A DNA stretch of 64,000 bases from Candidatus Micrarchaeia archaeon (GTDB taxonomy: Archaea; Micrarchaeota; Micrarchaeia; Norongarragalinales; Norongarragalinaceae): the NCBI GenBank assembly GCA_041648335.1, contig JBAZPG010000002.1:30528-94527 (forward strand), written 5' to 3'. Shown one piece after another: positions 6,417 through 48,954 of this stretch. Position 1 is the first letter of the stretch; every line of letters starts with the position of its first letter. The translations under genes and the position numbers were made by a program. Under the pieces are notes generated by a model. The model was not told where the DNA came from, ran no database searches, and saw nothing but the letters and a program-made list of their open reading frames with translations.

Positions 6417-6689
6417 TCACTTCCGCGCGTTCGCGCGCTTTACCGCCTCGCGCCAGGGCACGAGCTTGCGCTTGCCGGCGTCAATCTCGGCGTCAATCCG
6501 CTCGGTTTTGCGCGCCACGAGTTCAACCTCGATTTCCTTTGGGTCCATCAAGCAATACTCCCTGCCGAGTTCGAGCACGCCCGCGCGAATGGCTTCCGAA
6601 CGGGTTTGAAAATAACCCCGTTCAACGAGCTTATCCAGCACCACGGAAACCGCGCCCTCCAACCTAACCACTGCTTCCAAGCAAACCAC
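6417..6689 (-). CDS. parD: Type II antitoxin, ParD-like ribbon-helix-helix protein (GTG start)
   Basis: LDKLVERGYFQTRSEAIRAGVLEL matches the ParD/RHH consensus (sGrYasrSEvIRaaLR); operon partner of the ParE-like ORF. Confidence 0.65.
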   Translation of the reverse strand: MVCLEAVVRLEGAVSVVLDKLVERGYFQTRSEAIRAGVLELGREYCLMDPKEIEVELVARKTERIDAEIDAGKRKLVPWREAVKRANARK

Positions 6690-6887: not shown

Positions 6888-7556
6888 ATGCCTAGGCCTA
6901 TGCTTGAGAAGCCGGCGTTTAATCGTCGGGATTTGTCCCGGTTATCCGGAGAAGAGCGCAAAAACTATCTCGCTAACCTGCTTAGGTTGGTGCCAAGCCC
7001 GATCCATTCTAACACTAAACCCATAATCGCCGCGTTTATGAAAAATAGGTCACTTAATACTGCCGCGAAAGTGTTGAATGATACCGGCGTTGTTGTCAAC
7101 AAAATAGCACAAATATTTAGGGCGCACGGCGCTGATCACCGCGGAATTACTAATGGTTTGAATGCTGCGGGTTTTGGTAATGAGGATATTGCTCGTGGTT
7201 TGAAGTCTGCTGGTTTTGATTACGAGGATATTACTAGTGGTTTGAAGTCTGCTGGTTTTGGTCATGAGGATATTGCTCGTGGTTTGATTTCTGCGGGTTT
7301 TGGTGAGGATACTATTGCTAGTGGTTTGAAGTTTGCTGGTTTTGGTAATGAGGATATTGCGGTTGGTTTGTTTGCTGCTGGTTTTAGTCATGTGGGCGTT
7401 GCGAGTGGTTTGAAGGCTGTAGGGTATAATCATGTGGACGTTGCTCGCGGTTTGATTGCTGCTGGTTATGGTCCTAAGGATGTTGCCCGTGGTCTGATTG
7501 ATGCGGGGTTTAGTCCTGAGCGCGTTGTTCTTGGTTTGAAGTTTGCGGGGGTATAA
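6888..7556 (+). CDS. Tandem-repeat protein, N-terminal segment (18-residue GL(K/N)(S/A)AGF..EDIA repeats); terminated by a frameshift in a G5 run
   Basis: Non-repetitive N-terminal 75 aa, then 8 or more repeats of ..EDIARGLKSAGFGH..; stop created at the homopolymer gcggggg (7547-7551). Confidence 0.55.
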   Translation: MPRPMLEKPAFNRRDLSRLSGEERKNYLANLLRLVPSPIHSNTKPIIAAFMKNRSLNTAAKVLNDTGVVVNKIAQIFRAHGADHRGITNGLNAAGFGNEDIARGLKSAGFDYEDITSGLKSAGFGHEDIARGLISAGFGEDTIASGLKFAGFGNEDIAVGLFAAGFSHVGVASGLKAVGYNHVDVARGLIAAGYGPKDVARGLIDAGFSPERVVLGLKFAGV

Positions 7557-7870
7557 CCCTATGGCTGTTGCGATTGGTTTGAATGCTGCTGGTTTTAATC
7601 ATAAGGCTATTACCCGCGGTTTGAATGTTGCTGGTTTTGATCATAAGGCTATTGCCCGTGGTTTGAATGCTGCGGGTTTTGATTATGTGGATATTGTGGC
7701 TGGTTTGAAGTATGCGGGTTTTGGTCACGAGGATATTGCGGTTGGTTTGAAGTCTGCTGGGTATAGTCCGGCGGATGTTGCTCAGTGTTTGAAAGCGGTT
7801 GGTTCTAGGGATTACAACGAACTTGCTCGTGCTTTGAAAGCCGCTGGTTTTGATAACCTAGACATTGCCC
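7130..7870 (+). repeat. About 54-bp coding tandem repeats (ggtttgaa..gctggttttg..gaggatattgc..) underlying the repeat protein
   Basis: Direct repeats visible at nucleotide level; produce low-complexity shadow ORFs on the opposite strand. Confidence 0.6.
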
Positions 7871-7962
7871 GCTTTTTGAAGGCTTCCGGTTTGAGTACTG
7901 CCCGTTACCCCTATAATCCTGGACCTAGTCGGGCGGTTCTTAAAAAAGTTATAAAAAAATAG
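7543..7962 (+). CDS. Tandem-repeat protein, C-terminal segment (same repeat family, +1 frame relative to 6888-7556)
   Basis: Continues the identical repeat (GLNAAGFNHKAITRGLNVAGFDHKAIARGL...) and ends in a non-repetitive tail; removing one G at 7547-7551 fuses both ORFs into one ~357-aa protein. Confidence 0.55.
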   Translation: MRGYNPMAVAIGLNAAGFNHKAITRGLNVAGFDHKAIARGLNAAGFDYVDIVAGLKYAGFGHEDIAVGLKSAGYSPADVAQCLKAVGSRDYNELARALKAAGFDNLDIARFLKASGLSTARYPYNPGPSRAVLKKVIKK

Positions 7963-26921: not shown

Positions 26922-27182
26922 ATGCCTCCCCTGTCGATTCGCCCGGGAATGCGCCCGAAGGAGCTGAAGGAGGAATTGAGCCGCCAAGGTTTCGGTTTCT
27001 CGAACGAAGCCAAGGGCGGACACGTTGCGTTGACTTGGGAGGGCGAACTGTTGCGCTCCGAAAGCGGGCGTCCGGTGGTAATACCCGTTCATGGCAGCAA
27101 AAACGCGTTGAGTTCGGGTGTTGCCTCGCAGTTGAGGCGTCAAGTAGCGCCTTATTTGGAGCAAATAAGAAAGAGAGCGTGA
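26922..27182 (+). CDS. HicA/YcfA-like small protein (candidate toxin); its stop overlaps a GTG start of the LonB fragment
   Basis: KGGHVAL...RPVVIPVHGSK.ALSSGVASQLRRQ resembles HicA (G-S/G-H ... vPvH ... ilrQag). Confidence 0.4.
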   Translation: MPPLSIRPGMRPKELKEELSRQGFGFSNEAKGGHVALTWEGELLRSESGRPVVIPVHGSKNALSSGVASQLRRQVAPYLEQIRKRA

Positions 27183-29351: not shown

Positions 29352-30590
29352 ATGTCGAAACGGATTTTGAGCATATCGCGCGCCCCCGGGCAGTTGGCTT
29401 CCGCTAGGGCGGCGGGTTTCAACCGCGTCGAACTTTTTACCAAGGGCATTTCATCCGAGAACATGGAAGCGAAAATAGCTGAGGCGCAACGCCTGCTGAA
29501 AGAGCACTCGCTCTCTGTGGGTTCGGTGGTTATACCCAAATCATCCACGCTCGCGGATTTCAAAGAGAACGCGCGCCTCACGATTGCTTTTGCCTCGGGT
29601 GTTGGCGCGAAAATCGTGGTCGCCGACTACCCCGCTTTCCGCGGCGGCGAGTACCGCAAGAAAGAGCGCGAGGGCGCGGACATTGTTTCCCCCGCGGCGC
29701 TTGGCAACGTGCGCGGCTTGCTCAAGAGCGTGCCGCACCCGTTCGAAGTCGCCGAAGCGTTGTCCGAGTTGAAGAAGGACGCGGCGAGCAGTAAAGTCAA
29801 GATTTTGATTGAGTCGACGGGTGGTTCTGCTTTGCTTTACAAGCCGCTCGGCTTCAAGGCGTTCGAGCGCGTGGCGCGCGCCTCGCACGGACTCGTGCTT
29901 GATTTGGAGCACGTGGCGCAGGCAATGATAGCCCAGCCCGTGGAAGAGGTTTACAACCCCGCAACGCGTTTCCTATCCAACCGCGGCTCCGAGGAGGACG
30001 CGGTTCTGGTGCGCTCTTTCTATCAGGATTACGGCAATCACATGGATGCGCGTTCGAAGCGGGCGTTCCAGGACTTCCTGGAGGCGCACGGCAAACCGGG
30101 CGAAGAGGCGCGCTTCAGGAGTGCCTGCACGCGGTTGCTGGCGTTGACGAAACCCGGGTTACGCGGCTTCGGGAAAGAAGGCGCAACGCCAAAGGACTTG
30201 CAAGTCAAGCCGTCGAAATGGGTGTACGGGTTGTTCGTCAAGGCGTGGGGCTCGCTCCCGATAAAACACGTGCACCTGACCGGCGGGCACCTCGGGGAAC
30301 GCCTCGCGCCAAGCGAAACCGTGCGCACCTCGTTCGGTACCTCGGACTTGGCATTCGAGCACGCTTACGAAATCGAAACCCCGCGCGGCGAGCCGATAAT
30401 CTTGGGTTCGAAGCCCGGGCAATCGCTTTACGAATACCTGCACGCGAAAATGGGCGGCAGGCTTTACGCGAACAAGCCCTGGCACGAGTTCGCGCGCGAC
30501 TTGCTGGACGGCCGCAAGGCAACTGTGAATTTCGAGATAGAACCGAAACTCGTGCGCCCCGCGGACTTGAAGAACGCACGAAATTTGTGA
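29352..30590 (+). CDS. Hypothetical protein, possibly a xylose-isomerase-like TIM-barrel (sugar-phosphate isomerase/epimerase) fold
   Basis: N-terminal pattern AAGFNRVELF resembles this fold; otherwise unassigned; 12 nt downstream of the hydrogenase-like gene. Confidence 0.35.
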   Translation: MSKRILSISRAPGQLASARAAGFNRVELFTKGISSENMEAKIAEAQRLLKEHSLSVGSVVIPKSSTLADFKENARLTIAFASGVGAKIVVADYPAFRGGEYRKKEREGADIVSPAALGNVRGLLKSVPHPFEVAEALSELKKDAASSKVKILIESTGGSALLYKPLGFKAFERVARASHGLVLDLEHVAQAMIAQPVEEVYNPATRFLSNRGSEEDAVLVRSFYQDYGNHMDARSKRAFQDFLEAHGKPGEEARFRSACTRLLALTKPGLRGFGKEGATPKDLQVKPSKWVYGLFVKAWGSLPIKHVHLTGGHLGERLAPSETVRTSFGTSDLAFEHAYEIETPRGEPIILGSKPGQSLYEYLHAKMGGRLYANKPWHEFARDLLDGRKATVNFEIEPKLVRPADLKNARNL

Positions 30591-30663
30591 CGCGCACTTA
30601 TTTTATCGGGTTTTGAAGAATTAATGTAGTTTTAAAAACACGCAAACAAGTTGTTTCGGCGTT

Positions 30664-30903
30664 TTAAACGGGCATTGCAACCTGTAATGTGGTTACAAAT
30701 TTAGTTCCCTGTCGGTTCATAATTTCTTTCTTTTCGTTTGGGGTTAAACATTCTATGTGTAATTCTATTGCTTCCCGTAAATTAGCGGTTGCAGTAGGTA
30801 TGTCCTTACCTTGCGAGGCTACATCTAAATCTGGACACCAGGCGGTGTAGGTTGCACCATCTTTATAGGTTACTGCTGAAAAGCCCAAAACATTCGTTTT
30901 CAT
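30664..30903 (-). CDS. hicB: HicB-like antitoxin N-terminal domain (UPF0150 fold)
   Basis: TYTAWCPDLDVASQGKDIPTATANLREAIELHIECL matches HicB; the real start is the internal ATG at 30903, and the longer track ORF (to 31125) has an implausible N-terminus. Confidence 0.55.
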   Translation of the reverse strand: MKTNVLGFSAVTYKDGATYTAWCPDLDVASQGKDIPTATANLREAIELHIECLTPNEKKEIMNRQGTKFVTTLQVAMPV

Positions 30904-30976
30904 GTAATCTCTTTCGATGCGAGGGTATATAAATAGAGTTAAACAAAAACCATAACTGTAACTTAAGTGATGTTTT

Positions 30977-31636
30977 GTGAGTTTTGTTGAAACATTGACG
31001 GATGATGTTGATCCTCTTGACAGCCTATTTGTAAAGGGCGAATCTCTGAATCGTGAATTACTTAGGGACTTATTGTTTGATTTTATAAGATTAGACGAAA
31101 GCGGACGAATTTTTCCGCTTACCAATTTTTATTCAGAAACTAATCGTAATAAAGTTTTATTATTACTTCTTGCTAGTAAAGCTCTTTCATTGAAAACGAA
31201 CATTGTTGATGATGTTTCGCCAAAAGAGCTAGAAAAAACATCAGATATTCCTGCGGGGTCCATACGTCCAACTCTACGTCAACTTGCCGAAGAACGTTTA
31301 GTTGAGGAAAATGATGGACGGTATAAGATATTATCTGGTGCGTTACCCCGCTGTTCTCAAATTCTAAAATCTGGCAACCGAACCAGACGTGCTGTTTCTT
31401 TTTCTGGAATTTCAACTGAAAAAACTCAAAAGAGCATGGCGTCCGTTTTGAAAGATTTAGTTTCGGAGGGCGAATTAGATTCGGGTCAGGCTGCGTCTGA
31501 AGTTTTTTCTTTGGTTAATCAACGTCGACCTAACACGAAATATAATGCCCTTTACAAAGTGCTTAAGGATTTAGTTCATGATCGAATATTAGCCCGAGAA
31601 ATGAAGGGAGACGTTTGGAATTATAGGCGAATTTAA
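30977..31636 (+). CDS. Hypothetical protein with a central winged-helix-like segment
   Basis: 219-aa ORF in the low-GC island; SIRPTLRQLAEERLVEENDGRYKI looks wHTH-like; stop overlaps the hicA start (TAATG). Confidence 0.4.
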   Translation: MSFVETLTDDVDPLDSLFVKGESLNRELLRDLLFDFIRLDESGRIFPLTNFYSETNRNKVLLLLLASKALSLKTNIVDDVSPKELEKTSDIPAGSIRPTLRQLAEERLVEENDGRYKILSGALPRCSQILKSGNRTRRAVSFSGISTEKTQKSMASVLKDLVSEGELDSGQAASEVFSLVNQRRPNTKYNALYKVLKDLVHDRILAREMKGDVWNYRRI

Positions 31637-31854
31637 TGAAAACGCCGGTTGTAACTGGAAAAGAGGTTTTATCCGTTCTACAAAAAAACGGTTTTGCAGT
31701 AGTTAGGTGGAAAGGATCTCACGCGCATTTAACTAAGGGTAGCTTGCAGGTTACCGTGCCGGTACACAGTAATGATGAGATTAATCCGGGTGTTTTACGG
31801 TCTATTGCACGACAAGCAGGATTTGAACCAAATTCTTTCTTCAATTTGTTTTAG
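31636..31854 (+). CDS. hicA: HicA-family mRNA interferase toxin
   Basis: VLQKNGFAVVRWKGSHAHLTKGSLQVTVPVHSNDEINPGVLRSIARQAGF is a near-consensus HicA. Confidence 0.75.
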   Translation: MKTPVVTGKEVLSVLQKNGFAVVRWKGSHAHLTKGSLQVTVPVHSNDEINPGVLRSIARQAGFEPNSFFNLF

Positions 31855-31876
31855 TAATAATATGCGGATCCGCGCG

Positions 31877-32272
31877 TTAATTTCGCTTCTCGAACTCGTC
31901 GACCGCACCGTGGAAGTATTTGCTCAACTTTTTCCTGCACGTTTCGAGGGGAACCCACTCGCATTGCGAGTGTTCGCCGCCGCACGCCAGCACCCCGCCT
32001 TCCAGCGAGCAGGCGAAGACAATCATGGTTATGGACTGCCCGTCGTCGCGCGTGAAGTGGTGGACCTGCAGGGGCGCGCCCACGCGGGTTTCGAGTCCGG
32101 TTTCCTCGCGCACCTCGCGCTTCAAGCCGTCGAACGGGTTCTCTCCTTCTTCGAGTCGTCCGCCAGGTATCTCCCACAAGCCAGGGCAGTGCTCGTCGTC
32201 CTGGTTCCGCTTAATCAGTAGCACCCGGTTCGAGTCGACTATGAACGCCTTGACGGCGATTGCGTGCTTCAT
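31877..32272 (-). CDS. NUDIX hydrolase
   Basis: Nudix box GGRLEEGENPFDGLKREVREETGL. Confidence 0.8.
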   Translation of the reverse strand: MKHAIAVKAFIVDSNRVLLIKRNQDDEHCPGLWEIPGGRLEEGENPFDGLKREVREETGLETRVGAPLQVHHFTRDDGQSITMIVFACSLEGGVLACGGEHSQCEWVPLETCRKKLSKYFHGAVDEFEKRN

Positions 32273-48849: not shown

Positions 48850-48954
48850 CGCCGAGGACGAGATTCGAACTCGCACAGGTCAAAGACCCACCAGATTCCT
48901 CGCCCTTTCTCGGGGCTTCGAGTCTGGCGCGTTACCGGGTTCCGCCACCTCGGC
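48850..48954 (-). tRNA. tRNA-Ser (anticodon CGA) with long variable arm and a putative approx. 20-nt intron after position 37
   Basis: Reverse complement: acceptor GCCGAGG/CCTCGGC, discriminator G; anticodon stem CCAGA/TCTGG enclosing CTCGAA + intron (gccccgagaaagggcgagg; intron CGAG can pair with anticodon CTCG as in BHB motifs); variable arm GGGTC-TTT-GACC; T-arm GCGAG-TTCGAAT-CTCGT. Confidence 0.55.

Follow-up and report, generated by a model that had tools for sequence, protein, structure and literature searches.

The stretch of DNA analysed here, called the window throughout, is 64,000 nucleotides (nt) of contig JBAZPG010000002.1 from a Candidatus Micrarchaeia archaeon. In its middle lies an island of low guanine-plus-cytosine (GC) content, in which we identified a cassette of three genes, coding for a small HicB-like protein, a protein of 219 amino acids (aa) with two winged-helix domains, and a toxin of the HicA family, arranged around a divergent control region. 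The main features of this locus, in window coordinates, are the following:

30591-31876, no strand: low-GC island, the whole three-gene cassette, between the convergent 3' ends of a TIM-barrel gene (ends at 30590) and a NUDIX gene (ends at 31877)
30664-30903, minus strand: hicB-like gene, 79 aa, predicted to consist of the HicB N-terminal (partial RNase H-like) domain only, presumed antitoxin (PF15919, orthologue profile, NCBI name)
30904-30976, no strand: divergent 73-bp control region, conserved in length and order, common to hicB (leftward) and the winged-helix gene with hicA (rightward)
30977-31636, plus strand: 219-aa tandem winged-helix protein, presumed transcriptional regulator of the cassette (GTG start, TAA stop, AlphaFold2 model)
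31634-31638, plus strand: TAATG stop/start overlap of the 219-aa gene and hicA, by which hicA would be translationally coupled to the winged-helix gene
31636-31854, plus strand: hicA, 72 aa, predicted mRNA interferase toxin of the HicA family with the dsRBD (double-stranded RNA-binding) fold (PF07927 match)

The HicA of the window matches PF07927 with 64.9 bits (E = 7.2e-18, cut-off 27) over residues 8-62, and carries the Gly-Ser-His (GSH) motif, as KGSHAHL, which is kept in eight of nine cassette HicAs. According to the HicA literature, the His of this motif (Gly-x-His) acts in catalysis. The protein has a deletion of four residues relative to the HicAs of the other cassettes, and its exact sequence is not on record in the protein collections searched. 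A first-pass annotation, made from the letters of the window, had described a consensus HicA gene overlapped by the stop codon of the 219-aa gene, and the profile match and the TAA/ATG overlap of 1 nt agree with this description. A second, weak HicA-like open reading frame (ORF) is present elsewhere in the window (26922-27182, plus strand, 86 aa); its match to PF07927 falls short of the cut-off of 27, with 19.4 bits and E = 1.1e-3. In this ORF GGH replaces GSH, and the GC content is host-like. The gene callers had left a gap here; the ORF lies immediately upstream of a gene for an AAA/Mg-chelatase-like ATPase, which it overlaps, and has no adjacent HicB-like gene.

The annotation had also placed a HicB-like domain on the minus strand with its true start at an internal ATG, and this is the start recorded at NCBI (P0178, 100% identity and coverage), where the identical protein is named HicB family antitoxin. 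A profile built from seven HicB-like orthologues matches the N-terminal domain of Escherichia coli HicB (6g1c/6g1n) with E = 3.5e-4, in an alignment that spans HicB residues 2-52 only, and PF15919 is matched by seven of the seven orthologues (best E = 2.7e-5). The HicB-like proteins are 77-79 aa long, which leaves no space for the domain, ribbon-helix-helix (RHH) or helix-turn-helix (HTH), with which canonical HicB binds DNA, and in Pfam neither the window copy nor its orthologues gave a match to an HTH, an RHH or another DNA-binding domain.

The GTG at 30977 is identical to the start of the NCBI/ENA protein P0001. The exact 219-aa protein is recorded from a 533-kb ENA contig, and in NCBI as 'MAG: hypothetical protein WC607_01355 [Candidatus Micrarchaeia archaeon]' (MAG, metagenome-assembled genome). 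An AlphaFold2 model computed from an alignment of 149 sequences, which replaced one from four sequences only (predicted local distance difference test score, pLDDT, 64), reaches a pLDDT of 91.2 and contains two winged-helix domains of the kind that binds DNA, so that the winged-helix-like segment first noticed in this protein is real and is one of a pair. In the model, the N-domain (approximately residues 12-132) is formed by a conserved DPLDxLFV element, a small hairpin, a winged helix-turn-helix (wHTH) and a long helix, and is joined by a basic linker of low model confidence (approximately 133-153) to a C-domain (154-219) that is predicted to be a second winged helix. No curated family was reached by this protein in Pfam, NCBIfam, PADLOC or PHROGs. 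It scores 18.3 bits against TrmB (gathering cut-off 25.6) and 16.5 against HVO_A0261_N (cut-off 35), none of the MarR, TrmB, IclR or Fur-type winged-helix regulators is reached above threshold, and its 149 relatives gave only generic, scattered wHTH matches among the curated families. No match covers both domains, that is, the DPLDxLFV element and the two winged helices joined by the basic linker, and in PADLOC nothing was significant, the best match being the wHTH region of Csa3 (E = 0.001-0.01).

Relatives of the 219-aa protein were then used to recover DNA for 22 loci, which represent 13 distinct cassettes with middle proteins that are 44-70% identical among themselves. The layout hicB-like (minus), middle gene (plus), hicA (plus) is found in all 22 loci, save where the contig ends first, and in all cassettes the hicB-like gene is opposite in strand to hicA, with the 660-nt middle gene between them. 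The first-pass annotation had called the antitoxin unlinked and divergent; it is indeed divergent, but it is tightly linked, and a conserved control region of 70-85 bp is common to all three genes. Its further claim, that a different protein is coupled to the toxin, extends to the whole set, as the stop of the middle gene overlaps the start of hicA by 1 nt (TAATG) or 4 nt (ATGA) in every cassette in which both genes are complete. A 219-aa ORF lacking co-conservation with hicA had been named as the observation that would speak against the proposal; a sequence search for relatives of this protein, which had been suggested as a check, shows instead co-conservation in 13 of 13 distinct cassettes, all with the same three-gene layout.

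Close full-length relatives of the 219-aa protein are rare, with four clusters in an index of 5.8 billion proteins and eight matches at E < 1e-59 among 1.84 billion representatives. The three GTDB matches are Candidatus Micrarchaeota MAGs, all named cassette hosts are likewise Candidatus Micrarchaeota, and the cassette has so far been seen only in this phylum of the DPANN archaea; the scans of GTDB and of metagenome loci used a narrow alignment of close relatives, and are thus biased to these and undercount the family. The ratio of nonsynonymous to synonymous substitution rates (dN/dS) is 0.06-0.21 where measurable (2-10 usable pairs per gene), with dS saturated in most pairs, for all three genes, which are under purifying selection. 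The pairwise identities of the three proteins correlate (rho 0.33-0.67), consistent with inheritance as a single unit.

These results bear on one alternative, a decaying or fortuitous juxtaposition in which a hicA remnant, a regulator unrelated to it and an orphan hicB-like gene would share no function. This could be suspected from the failure of metagenome gene callers to call hicA and hicB in the source contig, from the four-residue deletion in the HicA of the window and from the existence of solo HicB-like genes (see below). Against it stand the same layout in all 13 cassettes at the divergence given above, the intact ORFs, the saturated dS with low dN/dS, and the conservation of the control region and of the stop/start overlaps in loci that are not near-identical copies of one element. 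We consider it very improbable, and effectively refuted by co-conservation.

The composition of the island is foreign. Its GC content is 0.386, against a mean of 0.599 (standard deviation 0.033) for the other segments of 1286 nt (z = -6.5), the lowest of which in the 64-kb stretch has 0.472, and a 300-nt profile falls from approximately 0.60 to 0.32-0.43 across about 30600-31900. The tetranucleotide distance between the island and the rest of the window has z = 8, and GC at third codon positions is 0.34, 0.26 and 0.34 in the three island genes and 0.75-0.85 in six flanking genes. Taken together, these deviations go far beyond intergenic variation. The fall in GC initially described (from about 62% to about 40% over about 1.3 kb) is therefore not of the kind that normal intergenic variation would produce, and the k-mer analysis that had been recommended supports it. 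Of the recent horizontal acquisition proposed on these grounds, the foreign composition is retained; 'recent' is not, since part of the AT-richness belongs to the cassette as such and the event is undatable.

The edges of the island coincide with gene ends, as 30591-31876 is bounded on either side by the stop codon of a convergent host gene. The host genes around it are ordinary archaeal housekeeping genes (Fe-hydrogenase-like, TIM-barrel, NUDIX, GHMP (mevalonate-type) kinase and PAC2). No convincing direct or inverted repeats flank the island, the best candidate being a 19-nt inverted pair with 79% identity that has one arm inside hicA, and no integrase, transposase or tRNA gene was found next to it. 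An assembly chimera was ruled out, because this island, flanks included, recurs in a Logan assembly made independently (SRR8449827, L002). In both contigs (L001 and L002) the metagenome gene callers called the 219-aa gene and missed hicA (31636-31854) and the hicB-like gene (30664-30903), the likely cause being the composition of the island, so unlike that of the contig. Small AT-rich toxin-antitoxin (TA) genes may thus be systematically under-called in GC-rich MAGs.

From one genome to the next the cassette is flanked by different housekeeping genes (PurP-like and adenylosuccinate synthetase; L7Ae and GluRS; Nre; PAP2; TIM barrel and NUDIX in the window), one cassette family adjoins a gene for an archaeal ATPase_2/DUF234 protein, and in nearly all hosts whose flanking sequence is usable the cassette has a lower GC content than these flanks. 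Varied flanks combined with AT-richness are the signature of a small mobile module. A virus or plasmid origin was considered and rejected, as no copy or relative was found in IMG/VR, among INPHARED phages or among PLSDB plasmids.

The spacer between hicB and the middle gene is 70-85 nt long in 9 of 12 cassettes, and its internal order is conserved despite saturated synonymous sites: the hicB ATG is followed by a spacer of 20-22 nt, an element like the B recognition element (BRE) with consensus GCGAAAGG, a TATATATA box, (T/A)AAC repeats, the Shine-Dalgarno-like TAAGTGAT and the start codon of the middle gene. In the window these elements are:

30919-30935, plus strand: BRE-like GCGAGGG (30919-30925) and, adjoining it, the TATA box TATATAAATA (30926-30935), assigned from the consensus GCGAAAGG-TATATATA of the control-region alignment
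30940-30962, plus strand: tandem (T/A)AAC hexamer repeats (TAAAC...AAAC CA TAAC TG TAAC), candidate operator of the winged-helix protein, from conservation and co-variation
30965-30971, plus strand: Shine-Dalgarno-like AAGTGAT, 5 nt before the GTG of the 219-aa gene, where most cassettes have a conserved TAAGTGAT or AAGGTGAT

We take the BRE/TATA pair to be an archaeal promoter, from general knowledge of such promoters; a scan for bacterial sigma-70 promoters, not applicable to an archaeon, gave nothing. The start of the TATA box lies 22 nt from the hicB ATG (20-22 nt in 9 of 12 cassettes), a spacing that would fit a leaderless hicB transcript. The Shine-Dalgarno-like motif speaks for translation of the 219-aa gene from the GTG at 30977.

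The (T/A)AAC hexamer repeats are present in 3-5 copies in the control regions of the cassettes. The sequence TAACNNTAAC was found in 7 of 12 control regions, where 0.02 were expected from shuffles, and it lies 26-28 nt past the TATA start in six of these seven and 21 nt past it in the seventh; in the 64-kb window the three-repeat pattern occurs solely in the control region. The repeats would overlie the expected start of rightward transcription. Repressor sites over the transcription start are the classical position for archaeal repressors. The presence of the exact repeat also co-varies with the recognition helix of the N-domain: it is found in seven of the eight cassettes with RPTL and in none of the four with NPTL, RPLL, LPAL or RPML, which do not form a clade (Fisher's test, p = 0.01, without correction for phylogeny).

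Starting from the observed gene content, co-conservation, selection, conserved non-coding motifs, co-variation and foreign composition, and from the fold of the middle protein, we infer the binding partners, protein-DNA contacts, repression and toxicity as follows. With moderate confidence, we interpret the island as a horizontally mobile, three-component HicA cassette in which the winged-helix protein acts as a regulator in trans. HicA would be an RNase toxin, and the 79-aa HicB-like protein, consisting of the HicA-binding N-terminal domain only, would neutralise it by direct binding, the mode seen for its homologue in the solved complex of E. coli HicA and HicB. The 219-aa protein would provide in trans the DNA binding and autoregulation that canonical HicB holds as a fused HTH or RHH. 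This would address a known gap, as it is not explained how modules with a small HicB that lacks a DNA-binding domain are regulated (Gerdes 2024, PMC10865869). The BRE/TATA of a single region of about 73 bp would drive hicB leftward, probably as a leaderless transcript, and the winged-helix gene with hicA rightward, and the winged-helix protein would bind the TAAC hexamer repeats over the rightward transcription start and repress. Translation of hicA would be coupled to that of the regulator gene, and in this way toxin synthesis would be tied to, and capped by, the negative autoregulation of the regulator.

Several observations weigh against this interpretation. Taken alone, the HicB-like protein of the window is below threshold for PF15919 (16.4 bits, cut-off 27, E = 0.01). 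One of the cassette HicAs (L011, 4621-4854) has GSR in place of the catalytic GSH in an otherwise intact cassette, and may be an inactivated toxin. The co-variation between recognition helix and repeat is based on 12 sequences only, direct hexamer repeats are an unusual operator for winged-helix dimers, and, given their place at the predicted transcription start, the repeats could alternatively be a promoter/initiator or a leader-RNA element. In addition, the HicB-like family is large (>7,900 matches), and three of four further close relatives that were probed (P0163, P0218 and P0248, 68-78% identical to cassette HicBs) are solo, with neither hicA nor the middle gene within 2.5 kb; the fourth, P0164, lies in a cassette. 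The solo genes are:

L029, 2501-2734: solo HicB-like gene between housekeeping genes of another Micrarchaeota contig
L032, 2501-2734: solo HicB-like gene in the same kind of setting
L035, 2501-2740: solo HicB-like gene in the same kind of setting

The HicB-like protein is thus not strictly dedicated to the cassette and may have another role, which lowers our confidence that it acts only as the antitoxin of the cassette HicA. Such orphan HicB-like genes are common in Micrarchaeota, and may be remnants, anti-addiction antitoxins or have another role. The solo gene of L029 adjoins an IS605 OrfB/TnpB gene and a HEPN-nucleotidyltransferase pair.

The position of the middle gene also counts against our interpretation, and leads to an alternative in which the 219-aa protein itself is the cognate antitoxin of HicA, in a two-gene operon, and the HicB-like protein is a second, back-up antitoxin, an anti-addiction antitoxin or a modulator. 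In every cassette the middle gene is directly upstream of the toxin gene and overlaps it, the classical antitoxin position; of its two domains one could bind DNA and the other HicA, and the frequently solo HicB-like relatives can exist without hicA. We consider this alternative unlikely, if to be taken seriously, and the wider family of the middle protein is informative in this respect. It comprises 536 matches at E <= 1e-3, mostly of the N-terminal wHTH of about 130 aa alone, with some members of 220-290 aa that have a similar C-terminal winged helix. Three distant relatives (P0155, P0010 and P0156) are encoded by the first gene of operons and overlap a downstream gene that is not hicA, and since both domains of the middle protein are present in them and precede other genes, neither domain looks HicA-specific. 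The genes in question are:

L014 2385-3143, L018 935-1711 and L017 1246-1803: genes overlapping the stop of distant relatives, and a neighbour, coding for uncharacterised proteins of 252-258 aa and a 186-aa neighbour

The genes directly downstream of the three relatives encode uncharacterised proteins of 252-258 aa or 154 aa, for which Pfam and PHROGs gave nothing at E < 0.01. Two of them (252-258 aa) are faintly DUF4145-like (E = 0.04 and 0.09), and R-x(4-6)-H motifs reminiscent of HEPN RNases were seen by eye in the 252-258-aa proteins and the 186-aa neighbour. If this HEPN/DUF4145 likeness is real, RNase toxins of several kinds may follow members of the winged-helix family. Judged by its gene contexts, the winged-helix protein resembles a portable 'front end' to a variety of cargo genes, and such a placement fits a regulator better than a HicA-specific antitoxin or binder. 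Furthermore, the cassette invariably contains what appears to be a bona fide HicB-type domain, the homologue of which is HicA-bound in the solved E. coli complex, and a strict pairing of HicA with HicB has been reported (PMC2701414). Thus, between the two roles, the 219-aa protein is more likely to be a regulator than an alternative antitoxin.

That the cassette serves primarily in abortive infection, against viruses or plasmids, with the winged-helix protein not a housekeeping autoregulator but a sensor or switch by which HicA is released or induced when infection occurs, appears to us rather improbable. HicA domains do occur in many defence-island contexts (PMC10865869), and the ATPase_2/DUF234 gene beside one cassette family and the faintly DUF4145-like proteins that follow distant relatives of the middle protein could be read in this direction. 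Conversely, most cassettes lie among housekeeping genes and not in defence islands, the middle protein has no significant match in PADLOC (the Csa3 wHTH region, given above, being the best), and the virus and plasmid collections searched hold no copy. Such a function would be compatible with the tripartite explanation that we prefer, and is not exclusive of it.

We compared the tripartite cassette with the known arrangements of HicA, of which 14 genetic contexts have been catalogued (Gerdes 2024, mBio, PMC10865869). Its layout matches none of these 14 classes, which include bicistronic hicAB and hicBA, fused HicA-HicB, Viperin-adjacent and SMC-HicA arrangements, and the words 'winged', 'divergent' and 'three-gene' are not mentioned in the text of that work (PMC10865869). 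In Classes 1 and 2, the common archaeal type, HicA has 60-85 aa and HicB 60-100 aa with a partial RNase H-like domain only (PMC10865869), and the cassette resembles them in its small HicB-like protein that lacks an HTH or RHH. In these classes, however, the genes are adjacent or overlapping in one operon, whereas hicB of the cassette lies on the other strand, across a divergent promoter region, and the cassette contains a gene for a tandem winged-helix protein of 215-224 aa that is translationally coupled to hicA. Class 7, the 'long HicB' of 216-233 aa, consists of two DUF1902 domains (PMC10865869) and was rejected as an identity for the 219-aa protein, which has two winged helices. The comparison with canonical HicAB (E. 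coli K-12, Classes 3 and 4, 6g1c/6g1n) shows a toxin of one and the same family (PF07927), an N-terminal HicB domain in common as far as the match of the orthologue profile indicates, and presumably the same logic of neutralisation by HicB with autoregulation at a promoter operator. In canonical HicB the DNA-binding domain is a C-terminal fusion that acts on palindromic operators; the HicB-like protein lacks the C-terminal HTH or RHH of Class 3/4, and in the cassette the corresponding domain is instead a separate polypeptide of winged-helix fold, with direct hexamer repeats as the candidate operator. HicA and HicB have been described as strictly paired (Makarova et al. 2009, PMC2701414).

Outside the HicAB family, designs of this type are already known in principle. 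The omega-epsilon-zeta system is a tripartite TA system with a dedicated regulator. PaaR2-PaaA2-ParE2 is another that has a separate regulator (PMC8630535). The cassette resembles both in having three co-conserved genes, a presumed antitoxin without a DNA-binding domain (the HicB-like protein) and a separate, predicted DNA-binding protein encoded within the module (the winged-helix middle protein). On the other hand, PaaR2 is a CI-like HTH protein and omega an RHH protein, neither related in sequence or fold to the winged-helix protein, and the toxins ParE and zeta differ from HicA. Those systems are bacterial and co-directional, whereas the antitoxin gene of the cassette is divergent and its toxin gene is coupled to the regulator gene and not to the antitoxin gene. 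Searches in Pfam, NCBIfam and PADLOC and fold searches returned only HicA, HicB and generic wHTH matches, and no homology to PaaR2/omega, PaaA2/epsilon or ParE/zeta. The resemblance is thus one of analogous design, not of membership.

Among archaea, the haloarchaeal pleolipovirus SNJ2 has a wHTH repressor (orf4), a HicB (orf5) and a HicA (orf6), and its HicB antagonises HicA toxicity in an archaeon (PMC10123103). Compared by layout alone, it is likewise an archaeal locus with a winged-helix repressor gene beside a hicBA pair; in contrast to the cassette, Orf4 is the lysogeny repressor of the virus, with the integrase gene as its target, and hicB and hicA are adjacent, as in a conventional TA pair, while the cassette of the Micrarchaeota lies in the chromosome and has no viral genes as neighbours. 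What is new is therefore not a tripartite TA design as such, but a conserved, mobile three-gene HicA cassette, an uncurated family of tandem winged-helix proteins and a candidate operator.

More speculatively, the cassette may represent a new regulatory design of TA systems, in which one bidirectional TATA box would fire both a leaderless antitoxin mRNA and a regulator-toxin operon, and a tandem winged-helix family would read direct hexamer repeats to set the toxin-to-antitoxin ratio. In DPANN and other archaea, the same family could then serve as a general front end to diverse toxin or defence effectors, which would be HicA in the cassette and HEPN/DUF4145-like proteins in other loci. We regard this extended proposal as doubtful at present.

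Elsewhere in the window, the second lowest GC content (approximately 0.46-0.47, with a GC skew of +0.33) is found at 6888-7962 on the plus strand, where two adjacent proteins of 222 and 139 aa are made of tandem repeats of about 10 residues of the 'GLKSAGFGxEDIAR' type, with weak and scattered Pfam matches; this stretch may be another foreign insert. Directly upstream of it, a 90-aa ORF (6417-6689, minus strand) has a faint RHH (CopG) signature (PF01402, E = 0.06), and may be an antitoxin-like or regulator gene. At 48850-48954 (minus strand), a 105-nt tRNA detected by Rfam (47.9 bits) is absent from the ARAGORN output, and is presumably an intron-containing archaeal tRNA.

HicAB is among the most widespread TA families, and the form without a DNA-binding domain is dominant in archaea, with its regulation left open (PMC10865869). 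For one lineage, the cassette offers a testable answer to how such a HicAB may be regulated, by a separate, hitherto undescribed double winged-helix regulator with a candidate operator. It adds a fifteenth genetic context for HicA and brings out a family of proteins that is uncurated and counts >500 members when clustered at 50%. In our reading, genome-reduced DPANN archaea of the Micrarchaeota exchange a compact mobile toxin module that is partly missed by standard metagenome gene callers, and, given the many solo HicB-like genes in this phylum, archaea may possess anti-addiction 'orphan antitoxins'.

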